From a virus (taxonomy: Duplodnaviria > Caudoviricetes): 31,310 nucleotides of DNA. The position numbers were made by a program, and so were the translations under genes. Where the stretch lies: positions 1 to 31,310 of IMG/VR virus record IMGVR_UViG_3300037424_000135; one strand, given 5' to 3'. Each line of letters opens with the position of its first letter. Position 1 is the stretch's first letter. Below the pieces are notes generated by a model. It had not been told where the DNA came from. It was given only the letters and a program-made list of their open reading frames with translations, and did not search any database. This document shows positions 2 through 18,440 of the stretch, in pieces.

Positions 2-2086
2 GAATACTATACAGGCCGTGCCTGCCGTGATGTCGTTATCTCTTATCCGTAATCCCCCCGCATACGCAGAATCCCAAAGAGTGCCACTGCCGAGAACACC
101 GTTCACGTTAATCTCTATACCAATCGCCGCCGTAGGATAATCGGAGGCAAGAACGCTTGCAGTACCGATGTCTCGGAACAGGGAGACAATCGTATTGCTG
201 TCGATGATGACCGGGTGCGTTAGCCCATAGTTGAACTGCTCAATTCTAATCGCTTCAGCATCCCCGGTATAGCTTGAGTCGGAGTCGTTTATATCACCAT
301 AGATGCGGATGTCATTATTGCGGATCACGAGGTTGGCGATTGTCTCTCGCCCCTTGATCGCTGTTGAGGAATGATATGCTCCCGCCCAGCCCTTGTGGGT
401 GATGATGTCGTTACCGTAAATCCAGTATGCGCCTTCTTCGGTTGTGTCTACACCCCGGCCCGTCATAAAGATACCGTCGCCGCCCCAATGGGTATCGCCC
501 ACGCGGAAGGTGTTGTTGGTTATCTTCGCGTTAGTGCCGACAAGCGTACCGTCGCCGTTGCGGATAGCTACTCCATAGCATTGCTCGGCGTTGGTGTATG
601 TGCCGTCACCCGTCCGCGTGTTGTAGGCATCGAGATAGATGTAGCTGGAATCCAGCCAGAACTTGCCATTAACACCCTCGAAGTAGTAGTTAACCCAGGG
701 GGCCGCAATGGTGGAGCACTTATCTATCTTGGCGTGGTAGGCGAAGGGGATACCGTTTAGGGTTGTCTTGTCATCACAGTTGGAAAAGACGACCATCGCG
801 TACAAGGCAAACTGCTGGCGGTCGTCAAGGGCCTCGGTACGGTTGTCGAACGTGATATTGCGGAGATAGAAGTTGTTGCCGCCTGAACTCCACCACGATT
901 GGGAGTTGCGCCCCTGAGTCCTGATGTAACAATCTTCTATGGTGATGTCGTGACTGAGCGTACCGACCCGAATAGCGTTCGCGCTTACATCGTAAGAGTC
1001 CAACAGACGCGCCGCAACCCGAATGTCCTGCACGAAGTTTAAGTCACGAACGGTGATATTATAGTTTCGGTTGGCGGGGTTGAGCGCAAAAGTGCTGGCC
1101 GTCCCCGCCGTGTCCCAATAGATTGAATCATTAGCGGGGTCCGACCCGTAGATCGTGATGTCGTGAACGTAAGCCGCGAGAGCTATACCGTTACCCGCAG
1201 AGTACAGGTCGTCCCTCACCACATAGCACGTATCGCTTACACTACAGGTGTACGGCAGGCCGGTAATCTCTATCGGGCTGCCGCAGACGGGATCGGTCGT
1301 GTAGAACACCACAAGTTTCGGGTGCGTCGTGTCGTCGGCATGATAAGGCGAATACCACGCCCGTTGTTTGGCCGCATTGGTAGAGTCTGCCGCCGTTTCG
1401 GGAGTGAACAACAGGACGCCGTAGTTATCGCCCAGGTCGGTCCAGTCCTCAACGACACTGGCCGCGAGTCTCAGAGTATCCCAAACGTAAGGCGTTGTGC
1501 CCACGCTGATCGTGTCCATATTGGTAGCAGAGCGGGATGTCGGCGTACCACAACCAACGTTGGTCCATTGCGTTTCAACCCAAATTCCAGGGTCTTCTTC
1601 GGTCGCTATGGTGTCGCAAAAGTACCACGTCGGCGTACCGTGCCGCCAAAATTCACCACCAAAGCCGTTCTCACCCCACGTCGTATCGGAGCCGACGATG
1701 AAATATCCGACCCATCGCCAAGATTCCATGACACGAGCCGCGTAGACTGTGACATTACCCGTCCAGTCTGAAGCGTCCGGGCCAGTAGGGGCAAACCGCT
1801 TGAGGATCAGATAGGCCGAGTCAACCGTCGTGTTGCTGTCGGCATCGAACTGCGGGGCGCTGCCTAAGCTGTCGAACTGAATCAAGGCACGGATGGCCGC
1901 GAACTGCGATATGGATTGATCTTTAACGTACAGGTATTCACCCGCAGCGAAGGAGAAGTCGTCTATGTTTTCGATGATCGGTGAGGCGTTCGTGTGCCCG
2001 TACTGTGTGACGCCATGTTGGAGCGTCAGGGTGGACCCCGATACCGACCCGACAAGCAGAAGGAGAAACGCCGCTATTCTACCCAC
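2..2086 (-). CDS. Signal-peptide-bearing DNRLRE-domain plus right-handed beta-helix protein (tail spike/depolymerase-like); 3' end runs off the window
   Basis: Missing from the ORF track because it has no stop in the window. My translation from GTG 2086 is open for 695 codons: MGRIAAFLLLLVGSVSGS..., DNRLRE motifs (RALIQFD, VDSAYL, VEDW..NYGVLL, HPKLVVFY), then beta-helix rungs (ITVRDLNF, ITIEDCYI, KITNNTF, IYGNDI, VIRNNDI, IIDSNTI, RIRDNDI). Confidence 0.85.
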   Translation of the reverse strand, partial: MGRIAAFLLLLVGSVSGSTLTLQHGVTQYGHTNASPIIENIDDFSFAAGEYLYVKDQSISQFAAIRALIQFDSLGSAPQFDADSNTTVDSAYLILKRFAPTGPDASDWTGNVTVYAARVMESWRWVGYFIVGSDTTWGENGFGGEFWRHGTPTWYFCDTIATEEDPGIWVETQWTNVGCGTPTSRSATNMDTISVGTTPYVWDTLRLAASVVEDWTDLGDNYGVLLFTPETAADSTNAAKQRAWYSPYHADDTTHPKLVVFYTTDPVCGSPIEITGLPYTCSVSDTCYVVRDDLYSAGNGIALAAYVHDITIYGSDPANDSIYWDTAGTASTFALNPANRNYNITVRDLNFVQDIRVAARLLDSYDVSANAIRVGTLSHDITIEDCYIRTQGRNSQSWWSSGGNNFYLRNITFDNRTEALDDRQQFALYAMVVFSNCDDKTTLNGIPFAYHAKIDKCSTIAAPWVNYYFEGVNGKFWLDSSYIYLDAYNTRTGDGTYTNAEQCYGVAIRNGDGTLVGTNAKITNNTFRVGDTHWGGDGIFMTGRGVDTTEEGAYWIYGNDIITHKGWAGAYHSSTAIKGRETIANLVIRNNDIRIYGDINDSDSSYTGDAEAIRIEQFNYGLTHPVIIDSNTIVSLFRDIGTASVLASDYPTAAIGIEINVNGVLGSGTLWDSAYAGGLRIRDNDITAGTACIVF

Positions 2087-3030
2087 GTCACCGTCCTTCT
2101 CCATACGGGGTTAGTCTCAAAGTAGCATCGCACGAGGGCGCACTGTTGGGCCGTCACAGAGTCAGGGCCAGCGGTTGTGGCCCCGATATAAGACAGTAAG
2201 TTTGTCCCGTATAGTGTGGTCGAATCACGATTCCAGGGGTACAGATTCGGGGTAGAGCAACTATCCACGTCCCAATTCGCCGCATAAGGCGCAGAGACGT
2301 TAAACTCCGGGTCCGGCGGAGTGTCCTCACAGACATCGTTCGTTGACCACGCAAGGGCGGTTGCGGAATCGGCGTCTATACCCGCCTGATCCAGCCAGTA
2401 GTTATAGGGGTACTCGTGCGCCGCACTCGCGCATGAGGGTACTTCGGTTACGTTTAGGTGAGTATGCCGCAACCCCCACTCATGACCCAATTCGTGCCGA
2501 ATCACTCGCCAGTCATTTGTCGGAGCCGCCGTCAGGGTGATGAACCCCGCGTCCCACACCGTATCCGCACCCGCTCCGTAGACCGCATGGTACTGGCCGG
2601 CAGTTGAACCAAGCCCCGCCACGAGGTTTACACTTGAATAGGGGACGGCGGGGACAAGGGCCTTGTATCCCGTTTCTGTCTGGCTGATTTCGTACTGGAC
2701 ATAAGCGTTAATCGCCGTGTTCGCAATAACGTTCGGCGTCACCTTGAATCGCAATTCTGTAAGCGCGTATGATTCGTTTAACCCCGTTTGCAGGGCCGTC
2801 ACGAGGGAATCGAGATTGCTCGCGGAATAGGTCGCCCCGCCCATGAAATGCGTCGAGTCCCCGTTGCCCGCGATGTTGAGCGTGATATTCACGGTATCTA
2901 CCCCACCACCAACCGAATCGGCGTGGTACTGCATCCGAACGGGCCTACAGTCACAGGAATCCCGTTGTGCCCCGTCATAGGCCGTCGCCGGAGCCGTCAA
3001 GATGAGCAATGCCAGTATCGTTCTCATCAT
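2074..3030 (-). CDS. Secreted metzincin zinc protease, M43 (pappalysin/ulilysin-like)
   Basis: Signal peptide MMRTILALLILTAPATA; zinc motif HELGHEWGLRH(TH); downstream D-x-C-x-DTPP, NLLSY (Met-turn position) and T-x-x-Q motifs in M43 order. Confidence 0.8.
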   Translation of the reverse strand: MMRTILALLILTAPATAYDGAQRDSCDCRPVRMQYHADSVGGGVDTVNITLNIAGNGDSTHFMGGATYSASNLDSLVTALQTGLNESYALTELRFKVTPNVIANTAINAYVQYEISQTETGYKALVPAVPYSSVNLVAGLGSTAGQYHAVYGAGADTVWDAGFITLTAAPTNDWRVIRHELGHEWGLRHTHLNVTEVPSCASAAHEYPYNYWLDQAGIDADSATALAWSTNDVCEDTPPDPEFNVSAPYAANWDVDSCSTPNLYPWNRDSTTLYGTNLLSYIGATTAGPDSVTAQQCALVRCYFETNPVWRRTVTWVE

Positions 3031-3797
3031 TCCCCCATCAGCAAGGCGCGACGTCGCGACCCGGTAGCCGCTTCCGGTGGTGTGTAGTAAATAGTGAGGA
3101 TGGGACGGACTCCCGTGTTCGTCGTGTATTCGGTAGATGCGAACGTCGTAAGGACATTATCGTTTATCCAGATCATCCAACCGAAGTTATTCCCCAGCCC
3201 ATTAATCAGAGAGTCAACGTGTGCAATTGCCGCCGCAGAAGTAAGCCGGAACTCGATATCGACCCCGTTTTCCGCTGGTACTACTGATGTGGCAAGCGGC
3301 GTCGCGTAGGCGTCACTTAAGTCTACGTCATCAAGCGATGTGGCGCAATTCGCTCCCCACGCCGAGTCAGTCTCCTCGTCAGGTTCATTGCCCTCCCACC
3401 GATCCGCGCCGTTGCCCATGTGGACTTGCCCCGCCGTACCCGTCCCCGTTCCCTCATACCATGCGACCTTCAGGCGGCGCAACCGAGCGTCCGTCGCCCC
3501 ATTCTGTGTTATGCAGTGAATACGAAAGATCGCTGAATCAAAGACGTTGCCCGCGTTCAGCGTCAGCAGCGTGTCCCAATTCGTGAACTTCCACACGGCT
3601 GTTCTGTTTGATCCCGCCAGACTGTCGAGGATAAACGTCGTGGCCCCGCCGTAGTTATAGTCGAAGTATGGGGAGTTCCCCCGCATCCCCATATCTTCCA
3701 TGTAATGCGAAGCGCCAGTTTCCTGAATAGCCAGAGTCTCGGCAGACGCCGACGCACAGAGGCACATGAGTAGTATTGTCAGCCGTTTTAGAACCAT
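3027..3797 (-). CDS. Signal-peptide-bearing DNRLRE-domain protein (candidate tail accessory/carbohydrate binding)
   Basis: Start reassigned to ATG 3797 (MVLKRLTILLMCLCASASA). Motifs RTAVWKF, FDSAIFRI, WYEGTG, NNFGWMI, FASTE..RPILTIYY; C-terminal RRRALL tail. Confidence 0.75.
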   Translation of the reverse strand: MVLKRLTILLMCLCASASAETLAIQETGASHYMEDMGMRGNSPYFDYNYGGATTFILDSLAGSNRTAVWKFTNWDTLLTLNAGNVFDSAIFRIHCITQNGATDARLRRLKVAWYEGTGTGTAGQVHMGNGADRWEGNEPDEETDSAWGANCATSLDDVDLSDAYATPLATSVVPAENGVDIEFRLTSAAAIAHVDSLINGLGNNFGWMIWINDNVLTTFASTEYTTNTGVRPILTIYYTPPEAATGSRRRALLMGE

Positions 3798-3877
3798 GCC
3801 CGTAGCTCCCATGACCAGACGAGGAGGAGGATTATGACAAGGGCCACGCAGATGCGGCCCCAAGTTTGGGTTGTCAT
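3788..3877 (-). CDS. 29-aa single-pass membrane peptide
   Basis: MTTQTWGRICVALVIILLLVWSWELRAWF; TGATG coupling to the upstream gene and overlap with the next start; fills the gap exactly. Confidence 0.55.
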   Translation of the reverse strand: MTTQTWGRICVALVIILLLVWSWELRAWF

Positions 3878-4149
3878 CAAAACGCTCCTAACATTTTGAA
3901 CGTGGCGACAATACCGACAATGGCCGCGATAGCCTTGAGGGTCGGGACGCTGATCCTTTCGAGAAAACTCCGGTTGGATTGCCATGTCTCTACGTCCCCT
4001 ACGCGAGTTTCGACCTTCCCTACGCGCCCATTTTGCGTGTCAAGACGCGTGTTGATGCCGGCGAACCCAGTAGCCATCGTATTCTTGATCCCCTCGACGG
4101 CCTCCGCCATCCTGCCGAAATCGTATGCACTTACCTCGTTGTCTGCCAT
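3877..4149 (-). CDS. Holin-like/XhlA-like small membrane protein
   Basis: Coiled coil (RLDTQNGRVGKVE) followed by one C-terminal hydrophobic helix (AIAAIVGIVATFKMLGAF); located right after the ejection genes. Confidence 0.5.
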   Translation of the reverse strand: MADNEVSAYDFGRMAEAVEGIKNTMATGFAGINTRLDTQNGRVGKVETRVGDVETWQSNRSFLERISVPTLKAIAAIVGIVATFKMLGAF

Positions 4150-4157
4150 GCGTCCCC

Positions 4158-7100
4158 CTATTTCGGTATCTCATCTATCTTCTGCTGTATCTTCGTGAGA
4201 CGCTCTTGCGCCTTCACTTTCGTAGTCGCCGCCGTCTTCGGACTGGTGATCTGCTCGACCAGTGAGATCATCTGGCCCTGCAAGAAGGCCCGGTACTGAT
4301 CGTCGTCACGCAACTTGATGTTGAACGGCGTCCAGAACTGCACGTCCACTTCGAGGTCTTTGTACTTCAAGGGCTGTTTCGTGGAGCGGTCCACCTTGGC
4401 CGGCAACATCTGGCTGAACGCCGGGTTCTCTGAGGCGTAGCCGTAGAAGAAGTTCTGCGCGAACCCAGACTTGACATCGTAGGTGCGCCGCTTCACGGGG
4501 TCGGTCTTGCGCTTGAGATACTGCAAGATCGGGGCATACGGCTGGAACTGCGCGACAAACTTACCCAACCGGGCCGATGTCGGCATATCCCGCTCATATT
4601 GATCGCGCACGTCACGGATGATGTCAGCCGCCTGTACCGCCGGACCAAACCCGTACATGGCATCGGCGTACTTGGCGACGTAATCAAAGTCGCCCTCCAG
4701 TAACCGCCGCCCAAGCGCCGCCTCGCGCACTATCGGCAACTGCGTCACATCGACCCAAATGCGTTGGCCGTCAATCTCCCCTACCGGAGTCCGCCCGTAG
4801 ACATCATTCTTGAGATCGTCGTTTTTATTCTGCATGTCGGACGTGAGGATGTAGCCCACCGTCCCAAGGGTGACTGCCCGTGCCAAATGAGCCGCCCGAG
4901 CAGCGCGTTCAGCGGAGGTCAAGCCGGAGTGGAGCACGTTGGCCTTGCTCGGATTGAGCAGGTCCATCGTCAACCGCGTCCCCTTATACATATAGGACGG
5001 GAACGACACGAGGGCGCGTCCCGCCTTAGACCGCTTCATACCGAGAATGAACTTCGGTAGATTGTTGTAGTCGAAGTTGACTCGATCCATCTCCACGTAG
5101 GCGTCGCGCAACACTTCACGCGGCGGGTCCTTGATGATCGACGCCTCAATCGCGGCATCACCGCCCGCAATCTCTTTCGCTTTCGCCCGGATCACCGCGT
5201 CAAACGTGCGCCGCTTCTGGAATAGTTCCACCGCCTTGAAGCCAGCCAGTAATTCGTTATAGCCGGGCATCGCGCCCTTTTGCTCAAACTGCGCGAAGAA
5301 GTTATCGCCAAGGCGCTCGGACTGGATCGACTTACGGGCTGCGGGTAACAGACTCTTATAGTAGGACTCGACATCGGCCTTCACCTTGGTCATATCTTTC
5401 GTGAAGACGCCCTCATAGAAGTCCTGCAAGAGCTTGGTGCTGAACTGTATCTCACCGGACACGAAGTTGAGCGCCGTCGTCTTGGGCCTCAGCAGCATCG
5501 TGGCGAGGAGATTATTCACGCCCCACGCTGCCACATTGTCGCCCATCTCAAGTAAGGCCAAAGTGGTCGGGGTCACGACCGTCTGCCCCTGTCGCGCCTT
5601 GAGTATCCCGCCGAGATCCTCGGCGATGATCTGCGGCACGATCACCCGTTTGCCGGACATGGCAAACCCGGCGCTCTTAACCTCAGCCAAGTCAATCTCT
5701 ACGCCGCGCTCCTTGAGAAGCGGCTCCGCCATCTCAAGTATTTTGCCAAAGTTCTTGGCACCCTCGGTCCATTCGACTACCGCCCAACCGTCAGGGATCG
5801 TTTCGCCACGTTTTAGTGTCCGCGCCGCGATGCCGATGAGCTTGGCCGCCGCCTCGTTATGGATCACTTCCGTACCGAGATCGACCGCGACCTTCTCCTC
5901 GGACATGACAAGGGACTGTATCTCCTCACCTGATTCGGCCAAGATACCCGTCCGGTACTTGCGCTCAGGCGCGACACGCTTCTTCAACCGATTCCAGAGA
6001 CCGCCAAAGCGAGTCTTGCCGGCCCCAGGAGCCGCGAAGCTGTGGACGTACCCCTCAACCCTCTGTGATATGCCCGCCTCAGTCGCCAAGTCCTGCATTC
6101 GCTTGACGTACTCCTTGACGTAGGACTGAGCATCAGCGGATAGGCCCTCAAACGAGGCGCGGGCCTCTTTGGGTGTGATCTTCCGGTAGTATTGCGTCTT
6201 GCCCTTGTAGGCACCCTCAGTCAGTTCTTCGCCCGCGATCAGGCCGTCGGGTATCTCCGCTCCCTCTTTGTAGACGCCCGCCCGCTGCATCGTGCCGAAC
6301 TCGATAGTCCCATCATTGGCGATGGACTTGATGCCCTTGACCGCCTGAAACATCTTCGCGTCGATGTCGGAGCCGATAGTTTTGAGTAGCTCAATGTCGC
6401 GTTTCTTGACAGCATCTCTAATCTGCTTTGCCGCGCCACCCTTGACGAACTGGTAGTCCTTGTCGGACCACTCCGGCTTACGCGGTATGCGCTCCGTCTC
6501 TTTCAGGAGCAAGTCGCCAAACTGTTGCACCGCGTTCTCGTGCGCGACACGGCGGAGTATCGCCACTTCCTCGCCCGCTTCTCTGAGGGTGTGGTAAGCG
6601 TCTGCACCCTTTTCGGCCCCCATGCCGACTTCCTCGAAGCCTGCCTCCAACCGCTCAGAGATCGTGCCGAGCTTCATGGTGAGCCACCGCTTCACGCCGG
6701 CAGCCACACCTTCAGGCGTACCGGGATCGACGCCATACTTTTCCATCGCGGCTTTCGCGGCCTTGATCGGGTCAGGTCCCTTGCCAACTACGCCGATACC
6801 GCCGGAGCGTTCCTCTGGCTGAAGATTCAGCACAGTCTCAGCCGCACCCGGATCGGTGAGACGGTCAAACTCCGCCTGTTGCTCGGCCAACCGTTCGTTC
6901 AGTGTCACAATGTCGGCTTCAGCCTGTGCCCGCTGTTCGCCCGTGATTGTCTTTAGGTCTCGCGCCTGTTCTGCGACTTGTATAGCCTTTTTGGTGTGCG
7001 CGAGATTGCGGCCCGCGTCCGCCATGTCGTTCCCGGTCTTTATGACTTCAGGAACCGACGGCTGTGCAGGGACTTCTTGGGCCGTATGTCGAACCGAGCG

Positions 7101-8873
7101 CACGGTGCCCGCAGGTGTTTCAACGGGGGGCGGCGGGGAAACGTCCCGATTTCTCTGGATTTCGGGGACCGCCCCAACCGTTTCCTTGACTATCGGCCTC
7201 GCCATTGTCGCCTCAGCCTCAGCCAGGGCCTTCTCCTGATCGGCCAACTGCGTCCTCCAGTTGGTGATTATGTCACCGAGGGCCTTCTTGTCAGCCCCGC
7301 GCCGCACCACCTTCTGCTGTCCCTCTAACTTGCCGATCTGCTCGGTGTAGTTCTGGATGTCCGACTTGGCTGTCTCAGCCGTCTCTTTGGCGGCATCGAA
7401 AGCCTCTTGCGTGATCGGCTCGGTCGAGGGCTTGGCCGGCTCCACCTGCTCAGGCGCAGGGGTCACGTCGGTCGGCTTCTTCTCCGGCTCCAACTTGACC
7501 TTGCCCGTCTGCTCGGACACGATGTCCGATTGAATGTCCGGTTTCACCGATCCCACCACCACTTCGTTTGGAATCCGGCCGCCGCTAACGATCTCCCGCA
7601 ACTGGCCCGTATCCATTCGTACTAGTTCGTCGGGGGTAATCCTTGCCGCCAAATCAGGATTCATTTCCTGTAACTTGTTGGCTTCAATAACTAACTGGCC
7701 CCGCGACATTTGTTGTATATCCTCAATCTGGCCGTAACTTTCGGTAGTCGGCTCAAATGTAGACTTCTGGGGTCGCGTTGCCTTGCCTGCCCGCTCGATC
7801 CCGTCCGCCACATCCTGCACGATCTTGACTTCTTCCGGTGTGGCTATACCGCTCTTTTCAGCCCCTTTCGCCGCGTCCCGCAGACCCGTGGCCCGCTCGG
7901 TCATGCGGTCCATCGTCTTCACGCCGCCCTTAACAAAACCCGCCGCCATCATCACACCAAAGGGCAGGGCCGAGGGGGTCTCGTAGAGCGCGTTCATCGC
8001 TTTTTTGCGAAGTTCTTTACGGTCGATACCGCCCGTAGTCGCCAGTGTCGCCGGGGCCTGTGCCGTCTCAATCAGCTTGGTAATGACGTTGTTCGGTGAC
8101 CCGAAGAACTGCTCCGCCATGCCAGCCACCTGATCCGGCACGTTGGCGATCATGTCCGCCATGCCAGTTGCAACTTCCTTGATGGCTTGGTCCTTGCTCT
8201 GGCCGTACTTCTCGGAGTTGACCACGCGGTCGAGCGTCTGAGTGAGAAAGTCCATCGTGCCCGACAGAGCGTCGTTGACCATGTATTCCGCCGACCAAAT
8301 ACCCTGTTCGACCGCGCCGCCCGCCTTGAACGCCTGAGACGCCGAGTATTCTTCCGGCGTCATCGGTTCGGTCTTCAAGTCACGGCCCGGCGAGACCGGA
8401 TGTGGCGTCTCAGCTTTACGCTTGCGGAAATAGTCGGCAATAGGCTTGGTGGACTCAGCCACCACATCGGAGCCAGCCTTGAGTACGCCCGCCGCCCCCT
8501 TTGTGGCCTGATCGGATTCCTGTTGCGCCTCTTGCGCCGCCCTCTGTTGATCCTGCTCTCGCGCCGCCTCGTCGATCTGTGGGAACAACTGCCGCGCCTG
8601 AGTGAACTGCTTCTGCTCGTCCGGGGTCAGAGACTCAGGCGACATTAGACCGCGCATAAGCATATCCTGTCCCGCCTCAGACGACAGGAACAGGTTCTCC
8701 GGGCCAACTTCGGGCACCTGCATCATAGGGACGCCCTGAGCCGCCATACCCTGCCCTACTCGCGTACCCATTTCAGCCGTGCGCTGTTCGGTGAGCCACT
8801 TGGTATAAGCGGCCTTTTCGCCCGTCCGCTTTTCAGCGAGCCACTGAGTATATGCTTCTTTGTCTGACGCCAT
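4158..8873 (-). CDS. Large internal virion/DNA ejection protein (~1571 aa)
   Basis: Start set to ATG 8873 (TAATG overlap). Ala/Glu/Lys-rich helical protein with a hydrophobic C-terminal third; last and largest of three genes after the nozzle, the usual ejectosome position. Confidence 0.7.
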   Translation of the reverse strand: MASDKEAYTQWLAEKRTGEKAAYTKWLTEQRTAEMGTRVGQGMAAQGVPMMQVPEVGPENLFLSSEAGQDMLMRGLMSPESLTPDEQKQFTQARQLFPQIDEAAREQDQQRAAQEAQQESDQATKGAAGVLKAGSDVVAESTKPIADYFRKRKAETPHPVSPGRDLKTEPMTPEEYSASQAFKAGGAVEQGIWSAEYMVNDALSGTMDFLTQTLDRVVNSEKYGQSKDQAIKEVATGMADMIANVPDQVAGMAEQFFGSPNNVITKLIETAQAPATLATTGGIDRKELRKKAMNALYETPSALPFGVMMAAGFVKGGVKTMDRMTERATGLRDAAKGAEKSGIATPEEVKIVQDVADGIERAGKATRPQKSTFEPTTESYGQIEDIQQMSRGQLVIEANKLQEMNPDLAARITPDELVRMDTGQLREIVSGGRIPNEVVVGSVKPDIQSDIVSEQTGKVKLEPEKKPTDVTPAPEQVEPAKPSTEPITQEAFDAAKETAETAKSDIQNYTEQIGKLEGQQKVVRRGADKKALGDIITNWRTQLADQEKALAEAEATMARPIVKETVGAVPEIQRNRDVSPPPPVETPAGTVRSVRHTAQEVPAQPSVPEVIKTGNDMADAGRNLAHTKKAIQVAEQARDLKTITGEQRAQAEADIVTLNERLAEQQAEFDRLTDPGAAETVLNLQPEERSGGIGVVGKGPDPIKAAKAAMEKYGVDPGTPEGVAAGVKRWLTMKLGTISERLEAGFEEVGMGAEKGADAYHTLREAGEEVAILRRVAHENAVQQFGDLLLKETERIPRKPEWSDKDYQFVKGGAAKQIRDAVKKRDIELLKTIGSDIDAKMFQAVKGIKSIANDGTIEFGTMQRAGVYKEGAEIPDGLIAGEELTEGAYKGKTQYYRKITPKEARASFEGLSADAQSYVKEYVKRMQDLATEAGISQRVEGYVHSFAAPGAGKTRFGGLWNRLKKRVAPERKYRTGILAESGEEIQSLVMSEEKVAVDLGTEVIHNEAAAKLIGIAARTLKRGETIPDGWAVVEWTEGAKNFGKILEMAEPLLKERGVEIDLAEVKSAGFAMSGKRVIVPQIIAEDLGGILKARQGQTVVTPTTLALLEMGDNVAAWGVNNLLATMLLRPKTTALNFVSGEIQFSTKLLQDFYEGVFTKDMTKVKADVESYYKSLLPAARKSIQSERLGDNFFAQFEQKGAMPGYNELLAGFKAVELFQKRRTFDAVIRAKAKEIAGGDAAIEASIIKDPPREVLRDAYVEMDRVNFDYNNLPKFILGMKRSKAGRALVSFPSYMYKGTRLTMDLLNPSKANVLHSGLTSAERAARAAHLARAVTLGTVGYILTSDMQNKNDDLKNDVYGRTPVGEIDGQRIWVDVTQLPIVREAALGRRLLEGDFDYVAKYADAMYGFGPAVQAADIIRDVRDQYERDMPTSARLGKFVAQFQPYAPILQYLKRKTDPVKRRTYDVKSGFAQNFFYGYASENPAFSQMLPAKVDRSTKQPLKYKDLEVDVQFWTPFNIKLRDDDQYRAFLQGQMISLVEQITSPKTAATTKVKAQERLTKIQQKIDEIPK

Positions 8874-9853
8874 TAGAGTCTGCCGGTCTCTTTTAGCCAA
8901 GCCTCGTAATCGTCCTGTGTGCCCGGAAAGTCTTTCGGCTTTCTCGGGGCGGCCAAACCTGTCTTCTCTATCGCGGTCGCCTTGTCACCCTCGACCCGCT
9001 TGGTGACCATTGCTTCTTTGACTTCACCCGTCGCCTTGTCGCGGTACTTGTCGAAGACGGCCTGTGTCTTTTCGTCAATCTGCTCACCCGCCAGCCAGCG
9101 TTGCAGGTCGATGTCGAACGTTGCCACGTTGCCGCCGGCCATGATGTACTTGCCGAGTTCTTCATTCTGAAGCGTAGACCGGGCCGAAGTGATCGCCTTC
9201 ACATCCATGCCGTAGACACCATAGAGTTCATCCATCGATCCGCCGTTGGCGAGATAGTCAGCCCGGCGCTCGGCACCCTCCGCCCCGAACATGGTCTTAG
9301 CATCCACGAGATTGCCGCCCTCATCATGGAGGGCGCTGGCAAGAGCCTCACGCTTGATCGCGGCATCGGTCGGCTTATCGGCGGCACCGCCCGTACCCAT
9401 GAAATCACTTGCACCCTGCTTGCCGAGATACTTGGTCAACTGATAGCTCGATAATAGCTTCGCACCCTCACCCGGCTGGCCCAATGCCGCCGCCAGTTGC
9501 TCCGCCGTCTCAGGGGTCAATTCTACCTTCTCGCCCGCACTCCATCCGATCTTGAGGGCCTCTTGTGGATCGAGTACGCCCGCCTCATACGCCTGTTGGA
9601 CTTCCGGCGGTAACTTGGCAAAGGACAGGTCGGGCCGACCCTGCAACATACTGAACGGCACCGATGCCCCCGCGCCGGCCAGACCAGCCGCCGCAGTTGC
9701 CTTTGAGGACGAAGACGCCTTCGGGTTCAGGAGGAGCTTATACATCTCCGCGACCTGACCCTCACGATCCTTGCGCCGTTGTTCTGACCGCTTCTCCCGC
9801 CCCTTCTCCAAGAGCATCGGGAAGATCAGTTCTTCCAGTCCGAGTTTAGGCAT
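8873..9853 (-). CDS. Putative internal virion/ejection protein
   Basis: Helical Ala/Gly-rich 326 aa, middle gene of the post-nozzle trio. Confidence 0.55.
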   Translation of the reverse strand: MPKLGLEELIFPMLLEKGREKRSEQRRKDREGQVAEMYKLLLNPKASSSSKATAAAGLAGAGASVPFSMLQGRPDLSFAKLPPEVQQAYEAGVLDPQEALKIGWSAGEKVELTPETAEQLAAALGQPGEGAKLLSSYQLTKYLGKQGASDFMGTGGAADKPTDAAIKREALASALHDEGGNLVDAKTMFGAEGAERRADYLANGGSMDELYGVYGMDVKAITSARSTLQNEELGKYIMAGGNVATFDIDLQRWLAGEQIDEKTQAVFDKYRDKATGEVKEAMVTKRVEGDKATAIEKTGLAAPRKPKDFPGTQDDYEAWLKETGRL

Positions 9854-10418
9854 AGTTCACTCCGCCAGACGCCGTGTCGCCTCCGCCGAACAGCCCCATC
9901 TTCTGCATCATCAGGAACTTCGTGGCGAAATCTCCGCCCTCACCGAGAAGGTCAAACAACTGTTGCGTTCCAGTAGACGAGCCGGCCTGTCCGCCCACGA
10001 GCATTTGTAACGCCTGCATCATGGCCTGCTGGTTCTGTTGCTCTGCTTGCATTTTCATGGACTGGTAGCCGAGCATATTCTGGGAGCCTACCGTAGCCGC
10101 CGCCCGACCGATAGGCGCGTAGACCGATGAGTACAGGTTCTTGGTCGCCTCACCGGAAGATGACAGCCCACGAGACGCGAGATCGGCGTTGAACGCTTCC
10201 CGTCCGACCGGCAACTGCGCCATGATGTCGGCGATCTGCGCGTTGGAGTTCGCCGACCATGCGGCTTCACTCGGTATCGTCATGTTCATCCGCTGGCCGC
10301 GTATGACCTGCATGAGCATATCTTGGATTGACTTCGGCAGACCACCGCCACCGCTACCGAACAGTCGGCCCGCTATACTACCTGCGGCACCCAGAGCCGC
10401 TACAATAGGAAATGCCAT
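9846..10418 (-). CDS. Putative DNA transfer/ejection protein (P22 gp7-like pilot)
   Basis: N-terminus MAFPIVAALGAAGSIAGRLFG, ASRGL..SG motif, Gln/Met-rich tail; first gene after the nozzle. Confidence 0.65.
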   Translation of the reverse strand: MAFPIVAALGAAGSIAGRLFGSGGGGLPKSIQDMLMQVIRGQRMNMTIPSEAAWSANSNAQIADIMAQLPVGREAFNADLASRGLSSSGEATKNLYSSVYAPIGRAAATVGSQNMLGYQSMKMQAEQQNQQAMMQALQMLVGGQAGSSTGTQQLFDLLGEGGDFATKFLMMQKMGLFGGGDTASGGVNYA

Positions 10419-10427
10419 CTCGCTACC

Positions 10428-12890
10428 TCACTTTTTCCCGTCGTCCCACACCATGTAGCCGATGTCGTAGCCCGTGATCCGGTAGTTGCCGACACCCTTG
10501 AAATCTTCTATCCGCAATGAGAAGTTCTCACATATCAGATTGACCGCCACCCGGTCCCGGTCTTGATCGGTGAACACCGGCTTGATATAGGCCGTGTCCA
10601 CCTGGTCGCCGTCGTTCTCGTAGAACAGGAGGCGGAGCGAATCCACCGTACCCGTCCCGAACAGGTCCACCCACAACACCTTCTCGCGCACCGGATCATC
10701 AAAGAAGAACTTGGATTGGTAACTCGCCTGTATCTTCGTGGTCCCATCCAGCGTGTCCGCGTCCGCATAGTTCCAGCGAAACACCGTGTCTGTCTCGGTG
10801 AGAATCAGCGACCGATCCGTCGAGTACGCCGTCCAGTCTTGCGCCGTGTCGTAGGCTATCGCGTCCCGCATGGCAAAGTTGTATGAGGTCCAGTGGGGCG
10901 AGGGGCGGAGCGAGTACACCAGCGTCCGGTTATTGACCGTATCGCCTATCGCCAGCGACCACCAGAGTTCATCCCCGACCGACCGGAGAACGCTTCGAGA
11001 GATATACTGTGACGCCGAATCGACTGTCTCTTGTATCGCCGCGCTCAGTGGTTGCGGCTTACCCAACTGGTACACGCCGTCGTTGCCGACAAAGTAGACG
11101 CCGAAGTTGTCCTTGCAGTAACCGCGCTCGGCCACGAGACCGACCCCGCTCATCAGTTGGCTCAAGCGATAGTCGCTAAACGTAAACCCGGAGATCGCCC
11201 ATACGCTGTTCTTCTTGAACACGACCAACTGATCGGCGGGAAGGGCACTGTCATAGTAGTCTACGTCCGCGATGGAAAGCAGGCCCGTAATGCCATCCCC
11301 ATCCTGTGAGGCGATTCGCACAAACTGATCCGGCGGGAACAGTGTCGGATAGTTCGTATTTGAATAGTACAAGTAGTCCGGCAACTCAGGATTGCCCGCC
11401 GCCCAGAGACGGTCGGCATGATGCTCAATGATAGAGGGCTGGAAAACGATAACTGAATCGTCGGGGCACCGCTGTTCTGGCGTCTTAATATAGAACCACT
11501 GTTCGCCGACACAATCTGGTATGCAAACGTCGTGGTTGGTCGTGTCTATATGTGTTGCATCCTCCCAACTCCCACCATCAACGATGCTATCATACCCAGA
11601 CTGAGTGAACGTATGAATACGATACCAACGCGGCGATATACTATCGCTACAATTATCGCCACCCGTAGTATCATAAAACTCACCCGCAAGGCGTCTCCAT
11701 AATTCAATCTCGCTGATGCCTGATTGGGGCAGTGGTGGAAAACTATCAATGGTTACCCGGCGCAGATAACTGTTAACTATCGCGCCTGTCATATTAAGCG
11801 AATCGGCCTCCATCGCAGTTGAATATGAGCGGCGGCCCAACGAGTCCACATATACCAACACATAAGCAACCCAACAGAACTTCGCGCTATCACCGGGAAG
11901 CCCGAACAGAATACTGGTAGATCCTCCCGTAACGATGTTGGTCCCGAATCCACCGGGAGGACGAATACGGGTATAGTGTCCCTGACTATACGAACCACCT
12001 TCCGTATTTCTCGTGTGCCAACCATACCGCGAACCAGCGTGAGCAAGACTAAGTGAGGCGGTTGGGGTGTTGTCAATATAGTAAGATATGGACGACGAGA
12101 TCGTGGCGACCTCGTAGTATAGCAAGTCCGGCAATTCTCGCCGGATAATTCCAATGGAATCTTGACTCGACAAAATCCCCGTATCCATAATTAGGGCGAC
12201 TTGGCCGTTATCAACGTAAACGGGGAACGACGGGGCAGAGAATACGCTGGTGTCGTCTGTCTCCGTATCAATATACGCATACTTATATACGAACCGCCCG
12301 CTCAATGCCCCCCCACCGGCGAGAGTTGTTGCCCGTGGCTGTCCGGCCGTTAAGGGACGGGCGGGAGCCGCTGAGGAGTCCGTCATATAAACAAGCTCAC
12401 TATTGGACTCGGCTATAAAGAGACGATGGTATATCTGGGTGCGATCTGTGGTTTGGGGGACGGTTAGGTTGCGCCACGGGCCATCAAATAACCGCGCCTT
12501 AACCAACTCGAAATCGTGTGTAGACGGGCCATACTTGACAAGTTGCTGCGTATTCTCGGAGATCGTGTCAGACTCGAACGCACCGTCGATCTGTCTGACG
12601 GCGAATAGGCTTTTATCCCGATAGTGTGACCATGGGAATATCGCCCCCACATACGGCGCACCCGTATCGGCCCACAGATAGCCGAGTCCCGGTCGTCGAT
12701 CCAGTACGCCGCCTACAACGTCATAGTTCGATAGACTCACCGCCCCGTTGTCCGGCACAAAAGCATTGGCGACACCGTTCACGATGCCGCCACTGAAATC
12801 GCGCACAGACTTGACCTGCACCTGCCCAAAAGCGGGTATTGCCAGTGCAAGAACGAAAAAGATCGTCAATCTGTTCAGGGCTTGAGCCAT
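10428..12890 (-). CDS. Tail nozzle/stabilization protein (P22 gp10 / T7 tubular-B-like) carrying an N-terminal signal peptide
   Basis: Typical nozzle N-terminal motifs DFSGG and N....G.L.RRPG, and beta-propeller motifs (RLWAAG, LYYS, ITGL, LVVFK, GVG, VYF..DGVY), preceded by MAQALNRLTIFFVLALAIPAFG|Q. Confidence 0.8.
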   Translation of the reverse strand: MAQALNRLTIFFVLALAIPAFGQVQVKSVRDFSGGIVNGVANAFVPDNGAVSLSNYDVVGGVLDRRPGLGYLWADTGAPYVGAIFPWSHYRDKSLFAVRQIDGAFESDTISENTQQLVKYGPSTHDFELVKARLFDGPWRNLTVPQTTDRTQIYHRLFIAESNSELVYMTDSSAAPARPLTAGQPRATTLAGGGALSGRFVYKYAYIDTETDDTSVFSAPSFPVYVDNGQVALIMDTGILSSQDSIGIIRRELPDLLYYEVATISSSISYYIDNTPTASLSLAHAGSRYGWHTRNTEGGSYSQGHYTRIRPPGGFGTNIVTGGSTSILFGLPGDSAKFCWVAYVLVYVDSLGRRSYSTAMEADSLNMTGAIVNSYLRRVTIDSFPPLPQSGISEIELWRRLAGEFYDTTGGDNCSDSISPRWYRIHTFTQSGYDSIVDGGSWEDATHIDTTNHDVCIPDCVGEQWFYIKTPEQRCPDDSVIVFQPSIIEHHADRLWAAGNPELPDYLYYSNTNYPTLFPPDQFVRIASQDGDGITGLLSIADVDYYDSALPADQLVVFKKNSVWAISGFTFSDYRLSQLMSGVGLVAERGYCKDNFGVYFVGNDGVYQLGKPQPLSAAIQETVDSASQYISRSVLRSVGDELWWSLAIGDTVNNRTLVYSLRPSPHWTSYNFAMRDAIAYDTAQDWTAYSTDRSLILTETDTVFRWNYADADTLDGTTKIQASYQSKFFFDDPVREKVLWVDLFGTGTVDSLRLLFYENDGDQVDTAYIKPVFTDQDRDRVAVNLICENFSLRIEDFKGVGNYRITGYDIGYMVWDDGKK

Positions 12891-13729
12891 ATCTTGATTC
12901 GCGGGTTAATAGTGAAGGTGGCCGTGCTGTCTCGATCTACCACCGCCGAATCCGCCAGGATGAAGTCGATGTACCAGTCCTGCAAAAACAGCGAATCGGT
13001 GTCCACGTATGGAATCGCCAAACTGTCAGGGATCGCCCATGCCTGAGAATCAATCAGCATCCGGCGACCGTCCATCATGCTGTATATCACCGTAGTCACG
13101 GTGTCCTCATCGCCGAAGTCCGTACCCGCCCCACTATATGTGGCCGCGACAAGATGGATCGACCCACAGATCGCGTCTATCCGCATAGCCGATCCCATGC
13201 TGATTGTCCCGGTGGCGCGGCGAGAGGTAGTCTGCGCGAGGGTGAGGTCGGGCGTGAACGTAGTGGTAGCTGTCTGTCCGGCTGCGACAATCGCACTATC
13301 CGCCCAGATGACATACAGGATGAGACTGTCGCCATTTGTAGCAAGAGAATCAGTCTCAAAATATGCCACGGTGATCGTGTCGGGAAGAATTGTGAGCGTC
13401 GAGTCTATAAGATGCCGAGTCGCTCCCTTCCGCCCATAGACTTTCGTGATGACAGTATCGACTGCACCAAACAGACCACCCTTTGTATATGACGATGACA
13501 GCAATGTAAGTGTCCCGCTGATGCCCTCGATGTTCGTCATAATCCCCACGTTGACCGTGAGCGTATCGCGCCGGTCGGTGGCCGCGATGCTCAAGGGGGA
13601 AGTCGTGACATACGATCCCGTACCGCTGATCGTCACCGTAGTCGCCTTGTCATATTTGTCTGAGGAGGCAGCCCATACGCTCGATCCGATCAGAGTGAGA
13701 ACTGCCAGTAGCACAAACCATTTCTTCAC
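12875..13729 (-). CDS. Signal-peptide-bearing beta-rich virion-module protein with a two-fold internal repeat
   Basis: GGAGG RBS; MKKWFVLLAVLTLIGSSVWA; Thr/Ser-rich; two alignable ~110-aa halves; lies between adaptor and nozzle. Confidence 0.75.
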   Translation of the reverse strand: MKKWFVLLAVLTLIGSSVWAASSDKYDKATTVTISGTGSYVTTSPLSIAATDRRDTLTVNVGIMTNIEGISGTLTLLSSSYTKGGLFGAVDTVITKVYGRKGATRHLIDSTLTILPDTITVAYFETDSLATNGDSLILYVIWADSAIVAAGQTATTTFTPDLTLAQTTSRRATGTISMGSAMRIDAICGSIHLVAATYSGAGTDFGDEDTVTTVIYSMMDGRRMLIDSQAWAIPDSLAIPYVDTDSLFLQDWYIDFILADSAVVDRDSTATFTINPRIKIWLKP

Positions 13730-14385
13730 TTCGACACCTCCGCCGATTTAGTTATCCCCAAATCCTGTCTCACCTGCATCTGTACCGCCTGAGCCTCTTG
13801 AAACCGCTTCAGGCTGCCGAGATAGTATGAAAACGCTTCCTCGATCACGAACACCTGCAACCGCTCCGCCAGCCGGCAGGTATCCGTCAACGTATCCAAG
13901 TCAGCCGGGTCCGCGACGTAGAACAGCCGCACCCGATTTGTTTCCTGATTCAGATTCTTGCAGTAGATTCTCGCGCTGTCCGTGTTCGTCCAGTCGGTAA
14001 AATACTGCGGCTTGGCACCCAACTTCGCTTCTTCGGGGATGCTGCCGAAATACTCGTTTGGCAGGACTGGCTCCCACAGGTAGCTGACCCAGACCATGAC
14101 ACCGGTTTCGCGTACAAAGTCGCTCGGCAGTAGTTCTCCTAAGCTGTCGGCGACGGTCCACGTTATGTTATATGACTTCTGGTAGCTGCCTGTGAGTCCA
14201 TTGATTTTGTCCTGCGCCTGATTCATCCAGTACCGCACGTCCGTATCCGTGAAGCTGGACTGCGCCGTATCCGTCTCGCCCACCCGACTGCGAAACATCG
14301 CAGTAAGATCAGAGAGGGTCACGGATGACGCTATCGAAGTGGAGGTGACCCACAACATCAAGAAGATGGCGATGCGTCGCATCAT
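13726..14385 (-). CDS. Head-tail adaptor/tail tubular-A-like protein with an N-terminal signal peptide
   Basis: After MMRRIAIFLMLWVTSTSIA comes the usual adaptor start (TLSDL...RSRVGE...TDTDVRYWMNQAQDKI), then LPSDF, KPQYF and RLFYVADP motifs. Confidence 0.75.
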   Translation of the reverse strand: MMRRIAIFLMLWVTSTSIASSVTLSDLTAMFRSRVGETDTAQSSFTDTDVRYWMNQAQDKINGLTGSYQKSYNITWTVADSLGELLPSDFVRETGVMVWVSYLWEPVLPNEYFGSIPEEAKLGAKPQYFTDWTNTDSARIYCKNLNQETNRVRLFYVADPADLDTLTDTCRLAERLQVFVIEEAFSYYLGSLKRFQEAQAVQMQVRQDLGITKSAEVSK

Positions 14386-15059
14386 GAACCCCCTCTGAAC
14401 CTTGAGTGCATCCGTCTGTTCAACCGCTGCACGTACCGCGTCGGCATGAGCGCCATGTGCGATGCGCGGGTAGATGGAGATTCGCGGATGCCTGATTTCA
14501 TGCGTTCGTAGATCACCAACGACTGAGCCGCATCAGGATTGAACTGCTCGAACATCGACCGCACACCTTCCTTGATCGCACGAGTGTTGATAATCAGGTC
14601 GGTGTCGGTCGTCTGCGGTTTCCGGTAGTAGAAGAACTTGTAGGTCCCTACCGCCGTCGGCAACGCATTGAGGATGAGGTAGTCGCCGGGTCCAGTCGCT
14701 CCATCCATGCGGGTCTCGATCATGCCGTACCAGTTGCCCGTGTATTCCGTGTCCGCCATGCGGCGGTAATACTCGGACTGGCTGATGACCTCAACCTCGC
14801 GGACGAACGCTCCGTCCGTATCTACCTCGATGATCGGGCCTTTAATTGTCGCAAAGTCGCCGGGGATTTTGTACGCCATAGACGACGTACTCAGTGTAAT
14901 TGGATACACCTTGCTCAATCGCTCAAATCGGCAATCGTTTTGCGACAATATGTCAATCGTGATCTCGCCGACAGCCCGCTCGACTCTCGAACGTAGCTCA
15001 GGCGAGTTCTGACCAAACTCGGTCATCAGTTCAGTGGTGATCTGCGCGGGTGACGCCAT
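14382..15059 (-). CDS. Head-tail adaptor-like protein, no signal peptide
   Basis: Helical N-terminus, YKIPGDF, LILNALP and FFYYRKP motifs paralleling the neighbouring adaptor; basic C-terminal tail. Confidence 0.65.
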   Translation of the reverse strand: MASPAQITTELMTEFGQNSPELRSRVERAVGEITIDILSQNDCRFERLSKVYPITLSTSSMAYKIPGDFATIKGPIIEVDTDGAFVREVEVISQSEYYRRMADTEYTGNWYGMIETRMDGATGPGDYLILNALPTAVGTYKFFYYRKPQTTDTDLIINTRAIKEGVRSMFEQFNPDAAQSLVIYERMKSGIRESPSTRASHMALMPTRYVQRLNRRMHSRFRGGS

Positions 15060-15060: not shown

Positions 15061-15570
15061 TTATTTTATGACGCGAAGCGGCTTTACGTCAGTCTCAGCT
15101 TTCAGTTCCTTGAGATTCAACTCATCGAACGACGGGTGGCTGCCGCTCTCGAACTTCGCGGTCTCGATGACCTTGACCTCGATGACGCCCTGTTGACGCC
15201 AGAACCCCGTCGGGTCTTCCGGGTCGGGGCGCACCATACCGCGCTCGTACACGTCGTCCGCCATCAGCAGTTGCAACAACCGCTTGTTATAAACCAACTT
15301 CTTGCAACCCTGAAATACGAGGGTGCATCCGGTCCCTTCGGTCTTCTCCCACACACCCGTCGCTTCGTTCTTCTTCCCCTCAGAGGGGATCAGTTTCACG
15401 CGCAACGAAATGAGCGGGTCAGAGGTAAAGACCGCCGGGACAGCCAGGTCCTTCTCCGTCAAATCGTAGGTCTTCGGGGGTTTCGAGTCCGGGTCAACCC
15501 ACTTCTTCGGGATACTTTCCCTGACAACTACTGAAGCCATATCCTGCCTTTTGGTGAAGGGGCCGGTCAT
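15061..15570 (-). CDS. Hypothetical protein in the head module
   Basis: GAGGGGG RBS, abuts neighbours; no motif recognised. Confidence 0.65.
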   Translation of the reverse strand: MTGPFTKRQDMASVVVRESIPKKWVDPDSKPPKTYDLTEKDLAVPAVFTSDPLISLRVKLIPSEGKKNEATGVWEKTEGTGCTLVFQGCKKLVYNKRLLQLLMADDVYERGMVRPDPEDPTGFWRQQGVIEVKVIETAKFESGSHPSFDELNLKELKAETDVKPLRVIK

Positions 15571-15592: not shown

Positions 15593-16420
15593 TTAGAAAG
15601 ACGAATACATCTTGTTGGCTCTGATCGCCGGCCCAAACGCATAGGACCGGGTGAAGACTTCGAGGCACGGCGAACTCGTACCCACGGCCGTCAGAGCGCC
15701 AGAGGCGTCTGCGATCTTGAATACGATGCGCTTGCCCTTCACGCTGAACAGCGGCTCATCGCTCACCGTCGAGGGGAAGGTTGTGTCAGTCGCCGTGACC
15801 AGCGCGAAGTGCCCGATCTGCGTCTTCGTCCCGGCGATGTCGTCGCACTCGTAGACGTAGACACCATCGGTCGCGCCCGCAAAGGTCGCCAGAGCCCGGA
15901 ACCTCATCACCTCGTGCAACACCTGAGCGTCGCAGTTGTGAGGCAGAAGCGACGGGCCGTTCCAAGTCACACCACAGTAGTGCGTCTCGGCGGTTGGCAA
16001 GTTCGTATCGACCACAAAGGAAGCCGTCAATCCGGCATCCGTCTTGGCCTGAGCAGCCGTCTTGCCGCCGACCGTGAACACACCGTTGTTGGTCGAGATG
16101 TTCATGTCGAAATCGCCGGGGAAGTCAATCGGCCAAGCCTCCCAGTTCGGCGACGCATTGATCGCATCGAGCACCTTTTTCAAGGTGTCGTAGGTCGTGA
16201 GATCGAGGATGCCGGTCGAAGCGAAGACGGTCGTGTCGGCCGCTTCGGATGACAGGACACCATGCTCGAACGTCAGGTTGCCAGTGGTCGCGGCCACCGT
16301 GACCAGACCACTCGCCGAAGTCCCGATGTAGCGGACACCCAGAAGAATCGGAGTATCCACGCCTTCGCGTCTGTAAATCTGCCGCTTCCAGTCCTGCGGC
16401 TGTATGGAATTGCAAATCAT
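15593..16420 (-). CDS. Putative capsid decoration/minor head protein
   Basis: Start reassigned to ATG 16420 behind TAAGGAGG; Thr/Ala/Gly beta-rich; immediately follows the major capsid gene. Confidence 0.55.
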   Translation of the reverse strand: MICNSIQPQDWKRQIYRREGVDTPILLGVRYIGTSASGLVTVAATTGNLTFEHGVLSSEAADTTVFASTGILDLTTYDTLKKVLDAINASPNWEAWPIDFPGDFDMNISTNNGVFTVGGKTAAQAKTDAGLTASFVVDTNLPTAETHYCGVTWNGPSLLPHNCDAQVLHEVMRFRALATFAGATDGVYVYECDDIAGTKTQIGHFALVTATDTTFPSTVSDEPLFSVKGKRIVFKIADASGALTAVGTSSPCLEVFTRSYAFGPAIRANKMYSSF

Positions 16421-17657: not shown

Positions 17658-18440
17658 TCACTGAAGGTCCTTCAGGATGCCTTCGAGTGTCTGTGCGCCT
17701 TCTTGCGCGGACGCCTTGTGAGCACCGCGACTTCCAGGTATGCCGCCCCGGTTTTTCGTTTGCAGACTGTCGATGTACTCCTCGACCGCTTCCTTCTTAG
17801 CCGCCTCTATAGCCTTGTCCAGATTGAGGCCCCGTGTGGCAAGGTGGGTCAACTCGGACGGCTTGATCTTGCCGACCGACACCGCAAGACTCAGAGCGTC
17901 CCGCTCATCCCCAAGGTCATCCCAATCCTTGTACTGGTTGGCGAGCGCCTGTTCGTCGAGGACGGACAGCCGTTCGATCACCGCGTCAAGTCTTGGGTCG
18001 TTCCCCTGGAGAGATTCAACCGCCTTTGCCTGTTTCTCCGGGTTCCCACTGGCGAAGATCGCCGCGAGGTCCGGCTTTTGGTCGCCGTCGAATTGCACTT
18101 TCAGTCCAGTCTGTTTTGCGATGCTGGCGATCAGGTCTTTGGGCTTCGTCTTGATCCGTTCGTTGAAGTCCTTGAGCGTCTTGATGTGCTCGCTTTGCTT
18201 GCCGAGCTTCGAGGTGACATCCTTGTACTTCGTTTCAAGATCAGCGAAAGCCTTTTCTCTGGCCGCCAACTTTTCTTCGGGACTGAGCTTCGGTTCCGGT
18301 TTCTGGCTCTCCTGACTCTTTCCCCCATCAGCCGCCCCGCCTGCATCGGCGTCGGGCTTCTGGTCGAGATTGGTTGCGCCGTCAGACTCGGCTCCGGGTA
18401 CGCCCCCACCGCCTTCGCCTGCGAAATGATACAGAACCAT
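17658..18440 (-). CDS. Capsid scaffolding protein
   Basis: LYHFAGEGGGG start, acidic disordered N-terminus, coiled coil; between portal and capsid. Confidence 0.75.
   Translation of the reverse strand: MVLYHFAGEGGGGVPGAESDGATNLDQKPDADAGGAADGGKSQESQKPEPKLSPEEKLAAREKAFADLETKYKDVTSKLGKQSEHIKTLKDFNERIKTKPKDLIASIAKQTGLKVQFDGDQKPDLAAIFASGNPEKQAKAVESLQGNDPRLDAVIERLSVLDEQALANQYKDWDDLGDERDALSLAVSVGKIKPSELTHLATRGLNLDKAIEAAKKEAVEEYIDSLQTKNRGGIPGSRGAHKASAQEGAQTLEGILKDLQ

Follow-up and report, generated by a model that had tools for sequence, protein, structure and literature searches.

The 31,310-base window analysed here is the whole of virus record IMGVR_UViG_3300037424_000135 (Caudoviricetes), a single contig whose left end cuts inside a gene. 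Its minus strand carries a late operon in which the tail-side proteins, but not the head proteins, begin with Sec-type leaders (signal peptides), a genuine pattern that is kept across a deep clade. The same tail-side proteins are rich in an O-glycosylation motif of bacterial extracytoplasmic proteins. We consider it likely that the outer tail of these phages is exported, probably glycosylated by the host, and joined to the head at lysis. The textbook view is that tailed phages build every virion part in the cytoplasm. An earlier note on this DNA had proposed instead that the tail is made in a separate compartment, and each check on that proposal that could be run (leaders in homologues, gene starts, protein folds) failed to refute it and leaves it supported.

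Six tail-side proteins carry the leaders that the earlier note had described: the second of two adaptor rings (ring 2), a protein of 284 amino acids (aa), the tail nozzle, and proteins of 256, 318 and 695 aa (Table 1). All six N-termini are present in the sequence, in frame on the minus strand, each combining one to three basic residues with a hydrophobic stretch and with small residues at -3 and -1. The best 9-residue hydropathy mean within the first 45 residues is 2.9-3.4 in every one of them, as opposed to at most 1.5 in the small terminase, large terminase (TerL), portal, scaffold, capsid protein, the first adaptor ring (ring 1) and two ejection proteins, which indeed lack leaders; the 190-aa ejection protein reaches 2.3 at residue 1, without a basic n-region. 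These scores come from an in-house hydropathy and charge rule, which is crude. A second membrane segment is absent from the five leader proteins checked (ring 2 and the nozzle being outside that check) and from the predicted nozzle model. The starts of the ring-2, 284-aa and 318-aa genes overlap the upstream stop by 4 nucleotides (nt), and GGAG/GGGG-type motifs lie upstream of four of the six leader-gene starts. A seventh leader protein (28659-28132) is encoded outside the tail module.

This split between leader-bearing and leaderless proteins is more than chance, because it recurs in 17 related loci, nine of them left once duplicates (three), short fragments (two) and distant leaderless loci (three) had been set aside, and eight from binned genomes. 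Leaders are kept on ring 2 and on the nozzle in all 17, and are found on none of 16 ring-1 proteins, two of which were assigned by position only. Among the best 150 of 367 nozzle matches, 138 were of at least 440 residues; 66 of these have a leader, 54 are leaderless, eight are ambiguous and 10 were dropped as fragments, ‘leaderless’ being counted, by construction, among the distant rows only. The 60 closest rows comprise 49 with a leader, five fragments and six that start inside an apparent leader, and two of the last (P0015, P0049) carry full leaders in their loci (L010, L009). The 49 leader-bearing core nozzles form one clade (FastTree, support 99), and leaders come and go elsewhere too, with eight changes of label over 120 tree rows. 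From the start to the D-F-x-G-G motif the median distance is 12 residues in leaderless nozzles and 29 in leader-bearing core ones.

Nor are the true starts, in general, likely to lie downstream of the leaders, the possibility that the earlier note had set against itself. Of 15 adjacent gene pairs, 12 show a 4-nt overlap between the ring-2 stop and the nozzle start, and no in-frame start follows within 16 codons of the hydrophobic region in six of 18 nozzles and six of 18 ring-2 genes. Because of these overlaps, and of the nozzles without a later start, mis-called starts cannot explain the leader pattern in general.

The leader-bearing proteins include core parts of a known type of tail, and the phage can be placed among the SU10-type podophages. 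An AlphaFold2 model of the nozzle (47-row alignment; predicted local distance difference test, pLDDT, 82.6) has the platform and seven-bladed beta-propeller of podophage nozzles, and its first 30 listed Foldseek rows are all podophage tails or nozzles, headed by SU10 (E 1e-19 to 2e-18; 7z47 E 2e-18) and including the crAss001 muzzle (E 1e-16), T7 gp12 and P22 gp10, so that the identity first proposed for this protein is confirmed. The naming of the 219-aa protein, ring 2, as an adaptor also proved sound, and its homologues place it in the SU10 type: the window protein has no direct family match, and its 63% identical relative P0002 matches PF24175 at E 2e-8 from residue 21. The family is matched by 16 of the 17 related ring-2 proteins (E up to 0.1), and in many of them the match begins directly behind the leader. 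The same family is matched by ring 1 of the window and by 11 of 14 tested related ring-1 proteins (E up to 0.1; best 2e-12). Since both neighbouring genes fall into PF24175, ring 2 through its homologues, the tail is predicted to have two paralogous rings, one leader-bearing and one leaderless; the direct profile match between them is weak (probability 30%). Ring 1 has a basic arm at its C-terminus, as would be expected if it binds the portal; in SU10 an embracing loop of the adaptor is described (PMC9509320).

In four relatives ring 2 is about 85 residues longer (L002:9063-9956, L004:9081-9995, L009:9094-10011, L010:7683-8564), through an internal duplication of its beta-sandwich domain.

The second line of evidence is the motif D(S/T)(A/I/L/M/T/V), which experiments have defined as the site of a general O-glycosylation of extracytoplasmic proteins in Bacteroidota (PMC10897501). 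Asp-Ser/Thr pairs were first noticed in the 284-aa protein, and the motif (hereafter sequon) was then tested against expectations from shuffled sequences. Sequons number 59 in the six tail-side proteins, where about 15 are expected, with an excess of 3.0-5.5-fold in each (each p <=0.013): 4 against 0.9 in ring 2, 12 against 3.2 in the 284-aa protein, 18 against 4.1 in the nozzle, and 5 against 1.2, 8 against 1.5 and 12 against 4.0 in the 256-, 318- and 695-aa proteins. In contrast, 18 leaderless proteins of the window have 16 against 16.7 expected, with a single sequon in the portal (1.6 expected) and none in the large ejection protein (3.9 expected). The paralogous rings provide an internal control: counted across the window plus 16 loci, there are 76 sequons in ring 2 (15.6 expected) and 15 in ring 1 (13.3 expected), ring 2 being the denser in 17 of 17 loci; the nozzles carry 282 where 61.9 are expected. 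In four relatives, the portal, capsid, cement and ejection proteins stay at chance level, and 21 leader-bearing fibre-region proteins of six relatives have 242 sequons against 69.9.

Within the nozzle family itself the motif is 4.2-fold enriched in the 49 core nozzles and stands at 0.98-fold in the 54 leaderless ones. A clear excess is seen for the published third residues alone, as D[ST] followed by other residues (0.93-fold), the reversed motif (0.79-fold), E[ST] (0.69-fold) and the Asn version (1.44-fold) show in the same 49 proteins. Seven exported outer-membrane-like proteins, from the window and its relatives, hold no sequon at all, and 16 late proteins of crAss001, which have no leaders, hold 31 against 25.9. 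One leaderless nozzle inside a leader-bearing subclade (P0076) keeps a 2.9-fold excess; either its start was called wrongly or it has lost the leader recently.

Two further features bear on processing. The residues [AGSC]-Q stand just before the opening motif in 40 of 55 core nozzles and in three of 54 leaderless ones (background 7.4%). The Q-rule of Bacteroidota describes a glutamine directly behind the site cut by signal peptidase I, and its level varies across the FCB (Fibrobacteres–Chlorobi–Bacteroidetes) group (PMC5837995), and Q-rule leaders have been described on Porphyromonas phage genes of unknown function (PMC10367356). As read from sequence, the glutamine behind the leader and the sequon are two independent marks of extracytoplasmic processing on the same proteins. 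The earlier note had also argued from paired cysteines, and the pairs do co-vary: three are found in the core nozzles, also without gapped rows, with joint change at positions 456/475 in eight of nine independent pairs on the tree (p 0.008) and at 295/362 in 6.4 of eight, and too few pairs at 120/127. As an argument for export they are weak, because crAss001 has tail disulfides (PMC10172136) and no leaders.

Comparison with characterised systems shows parts of known kinds. Like SU10 (adaptor gp11 of PF24175, nozzle gp17, PDB 7z47; PMC9509320), the window has this nozzle fold, adaptor family, capsid-protein type and gene order with ejection proteins; unlike SU10, it has two adaptor rings rather than one, at identities of 8-13%, and leaders and sequons on ring 2 and the nozzle, where the SU10 paper mentions no signal peptide. 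T7 gp11/gp12 and P22 gp4/gp10 form the same type of tail, but are made free of export signals. The phage crAss001 (PMC10172136; PDB 7qok) shares stacked paralogous rings between portal and nozzle-like muzzle, as well as the disulfides, but none of the 16 late proteins checked in it has a leader and its sequons are at chance level. The crassvirus combination of crass-fold muzzle, large RNA polymerase cargo and ~100-kb genome is not found here: the 820-aa nozzle has no crAss family match, and a complete relative of the window has 52 kb.

The cultured Cellulophaga podophage phi18:3 (KC821620, Pachyviridae) has Sec-type leaders with Gln at +1 on gp085-gp087 (L064:2892-8584), which its record lists as structural by tandem mass spectrometry, so leader proteins do occur in virion preparations. 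Its ring-position proteins gp112/gp113 and muzzle proteins gp114/gp115, in contrast, are leaderless, and our literature search found no paper on the export of gp085-gp087. The motif and the Gln after signal peptidase I cleavage are those of exported Bacteroidota proteins (PMC10897501, PMC5837995), but they are described there for bacterial proteins, and their use on a phage tail core is undescribed in the literature searched. A glycan coat on a tailed virion is known from mycobacteriophages Che8 and Rita (cited in PMC11256854), where, as far as that source goes, phage-encoded glycosyltransferases act on the capsid, whereas here exported tail parts carry the marks. Filamentous phages such as M13 also make virion proteins with Sec leaders; they contain single-stranded DNA, are extruded through the membrane without a preformed head and are unrelated to tailed phages. 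Among the literature matches listed (the top 8-25 of each search, in a collection with few subscription papers), no description of an exported or glycosylated tail route was found for any tailed phage. The route itself would thus be new, and we infer it from these marks.

In the scheme that we favour, the cytoplasm would be where heads are built, filled with DNA and capped by the leaderless ring 1, while ring 2, nozzle, fibres and accessory proteins would pass through the host Sec system, to be clipped, O-glycosylated and pre-assembled in the periplasm. The exported tail would then meet the filled head when the inner membrane opens at lysis. What the phage would gain is a glycan coat on the parts facing the host surface, obtainable only outside the cytoplasm for a phage without glycosyltransferases of its own; none was found among the proteins of the window, a partial genome. 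The parts of this scheme differ in strength. Export and cleavage of the leader proteins are very probable on the sequence evidence, and the presence of mature ring 2 and nozzle in the virion is equally so; for the peptidase and the 284-aa protein, virion presence is less assured. Glycosylation of the outer tail by a host enzyme is probable, and we lean, a little less firmly, towards a joint formed between ring 1 and ring 2 by way of large holin lesions; these two steps are the least certain. In its fullest form the proposal is of a deep podophage clade with a two-compartment virion, in which the duplicated adaptor divides the particle between ring 1 and ring 2 and the outer tail, exported and host-glycosylated under selection for many more sites than host proteins carry, snaps onto stably plugged heads passing holin lesions; to this version, taken as a whole, we give an even chance.

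Joining at lysis is feasible, because holin holes are of micron scale and thus large enough for heads; leaderless endolysins leave through them (PMC6116005). Two relatives (G001 and G002) encode leaderless NlpC/P60 endolysins. In three others (G003, G021, G009) a leaderless protein of 120-126 aa, without a Pfam match, occupies the expected endolysin place (L019:14765-15145, L060:6527-6889, L047:1229-1600), and possibly represents an unrecognised endolysin family.

Several observations weigh against the proposed route. In T7 the closed portal holds the DNA only briefly, adaptor binding opens the valve, and the nozzle closes the channel (PMC6702177); because the T7 adaptor opens the portal, a head with ring 1 alone needs an unexplained plug, and the DNA would have to be held by ring 1, the 169-aa protein or the portal. 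The leader rule gave false calls, for example on the capsid protein of G153, and in-frame GTG codons lie behind the leaders of the window nozzle (codons 24 and 29) and ring 2 (codon 22). Gln stands at the predicted +1 in only two of the seven leader proteins of the window. TerL is sequon-rich though leaderless (5 against 1.3 expected), six of the 66 leader-bearing nozzles are sequon-low, and 11 of the 18 nozzle sequons lie in coil, which is not more than for other Ser/Thr. Leader and sequon excess do not change together significantly on the tree (four independent pairs, 1.6 same, 2.4 no change). The phi18:3 leader proteins are sequon-poor (one each against about three expected), the opposite of this clade, and no cultured relative was found in INPHARED. 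Finally, exported proteins of the candidate-host bins show only weak sequon enrichment (1.6-fold over 18 proteins in G021, 1.07-fold over four in G009, 1.06-fold over 12 in G006), and the host may lie outside Bacteroidota proper.

These weak values in the bins, together with phi18:3 and the co-varying cysteines, would fit an outer tail that is exported and joined outside the cytoplasm without any glycosylation, the D-S/T excess serving turn capping, metal binding or another modification, and export serving folding or keeping tail enzymes from the cytoplasm. We regard this as unlikely, since the same-fold controls (ring 1 and the leaderless nozzles) show no excess, the excess appears only with the published third residues, and the outer-membrane-like proteins, exported as they are, have no sequons. 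It is less likely again that the leaders stay uncleaved, either as inner-membrane anchors of an assembly platform or because a second start yields a shorter cytoplasmic form. The GTG codons noted above could serve as such starts, which occur in 12 of 18 nozzles, and the plug problem would then disappear; but the remaining nozzles and a third of the ring-2 genes have none, and the starts keep no conserved place. As for an anchor, basic residues before the hydrophobic region would put the body of the protein outside, and the small -1/-3 residues and the Gln at +1 speak for cleavage. The sequon excess, moreover, makes sense only outside the cytoplasm.

That the exported proteins form a secreted decoy or a surface structure, for superinfection exclusion or lysogenic conversion, with another tail serving the virion, seems to us very improbable. 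Relatives are temperate (G003 and G021 carry integrases), and the peptidase and the CBM-like proteins resemble secreted bacterial proteins. The genes nonetheless stand in canonical morphogenesis order, coupled to those of ring 1 and the ejection proteins, the complete 52-kb genome of G003 gives a single nozzle match, and the SU10 nozzle binds its adaptor directly (PMC9509320). If the exported, host-glycosylated tail is real, it means a second assembly compartment, heads that stay plugged for long and their joining to tails at lysis; burst size would depend on host secretion and glycosylation, and a bacterial virus would wear host glycans as enveloped animal viruses do.

As regards the host, the class to which G005 belongs has nozzle relatives in 10 of its 285 genomes, nine with ring-2 and nozzle leaders and one cut short. 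A search by phylum gave these 285 genomes again, and a phylum consisting of one class of this size may represent a further branch of the FCB group, Zixibacteria for example. In the class of G006 (Phycisphaerae), 401 genomes were sampled and five have nozzle relatives, one with leaders. The four largest binned contigs, read by eye, look like phage alone, so bin membership reflects binning rather than integration.

The late operon runs from the small terminase through TerL, portal, scaffold, an SU10-type capsid protein and the 275- and 169-aa proteins to the two adaptor genes, the 284-aa protein and the nozzle; three genes for ejection proteins follow, then a holin-like gene and, last, three accessory ones (Table 1). 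TerL, portal and capsid protein thus make up a head module, ejection proteins are present as well, and there is neither a tape measure nor a sheath. Portal and scaffold are named from position and weak matches, and the ejection proteins from position alone; the portal is 32-47% identical to same-position genes in eight relatives. The 275-aa protein is probably a capsid cement, and the 169-aa protein is a candidate head plug or chaperone. The 90-aa holin-like protein has a single C-terminal hydrophobic segment (KD19 1.9 at residue 66).

Table 1. Features of the window in the order of the late operon, with the seventh leader protein last.
Feature	Coordinates	Strand	Leader	Basis or remark
Small terminase	22496..23077	-	none	by position; no family match
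Large terminase (TerL)	20721..22499	-	none	phrog_2 E 7e-16
Portal, 678 aa	18692..20728	-	none	by position; phrog_449 E 0.002
Scaffold	17658..18440	-	none	by position and coiled coil
Major capsid protein, SU10 type	16432..17619	-	none	PF17236 E 9e-14
Conserved 275-aa jelly-roll protein	15593..16420	-	none	
Conserved 169-aa protein	15061..15570	-	none	in 9/9 aligned loci; no family match
Adaptor ring 1	14382..15059	-	none	PF24175 E 1.5e-3; basic C-terminal arm; 0 sequons
Adaptor ring 2, 219 aa	13726..14385	-	14385-14329	63% identical P0002 matches PF24175
284-aa protein	12875..13729	-	13729-13670	tandem duplication; atlas matches under 0.9
Tail nozzle, 820 aa	10428..12890	-	12890-12825	model and Foldseek; Gln at predicted +1
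Ejection protein, small	9846..10418	-	none	by position; no Cys
Ejection protein, middle	8873..9853	-	none	by position; 0 sequons
Ejection protein, large, 1580 aa	4158..8900	-	none	by position
90-aa protein, holin-like by position only	3877..4149	-		phrog_5225 (function unknown) E 0.003
256-aa CBM96/DNRLRE-like protein	3027..3797	-	3797-3741	relative matches PF24517
318-aa zinc metallopeptidase	2074..3030	-	3030-2980	PF13688 E 2.8e-6; HELGHEWGLRH
Fibre/tailspike-like protein, 695 aa seen	2..2086	-	2086-2036	cut by contig end
Seventh leader protein, outer-membrane-protein-like	28132..28659	-	present	outside tail module; 0 sequons

The accessory leader proteins are more varied. The 284-aa protein contains a unit of about 130 aa duplicated in tandem (38% identity over 99 residues) and was not found in the related loci, which carry instead a leader protein of 120-230 aa directly after the nozzle. 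The ‘DNRLRE’ label of the earlier note is not confirmed: the window proteins have no Pfam or NCBIfam match, but an aligned relative of the 256-aa protein matches the CBM96 family at E 1e-5, just under the cut-off. Its ‘M43 protease’, on the other hand, has to be renamed, as the Pfam matches of the 318-aa protein are to the reprolysin-like family (Table 1) and to M57 (PF12388, E 1.5e-4), with none to M43. The truncated 695-aa protein matches, at 26%, a protein of 861 aa in G002 that also bears a leader.

Leader-bearing, outer-membrane beta-barrel-like proteins of 160-180 aa occur in the window and in six relatives (L058:16819-17334, L060:7711-8238, L063:2720-3199, L023:15707-16195, L019:16331-16870, L022:3826-4320), often beside lysis genes. 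They align poorly (17-24%), those tested have no Pfam match, and a role in outer-membrane lysis or exclusion is possible. In three binned relatives a leader gene lies within the head module, between portal and scaffold (L045:5776-6594, L048:4975-5511, L049:14402-15256).

Elsewhere in the window, a GroES-like co-chaperonin (27475-27765, minus strand; PF00166 E 3e-25) is of a kind also carried by phi18:3 and crAss001. The stretch 29400-30150 is AT-richer and without long open reading frames, and GC skew and gene direction switch there; it likely holds divergent promoters, an origin or a packaging region. An accessory block at 24437-27177 (minus strand) encodes a helix-turn-helix phosphoesterase/exonuclease (phrog_704), a dATP/dGTP diphosphohydrolase (PF18909), a nucleoside deoxyribosyltransferase-like protein (phrog_355) and a sigma-70-type factor, and may point to modified nucleotides.

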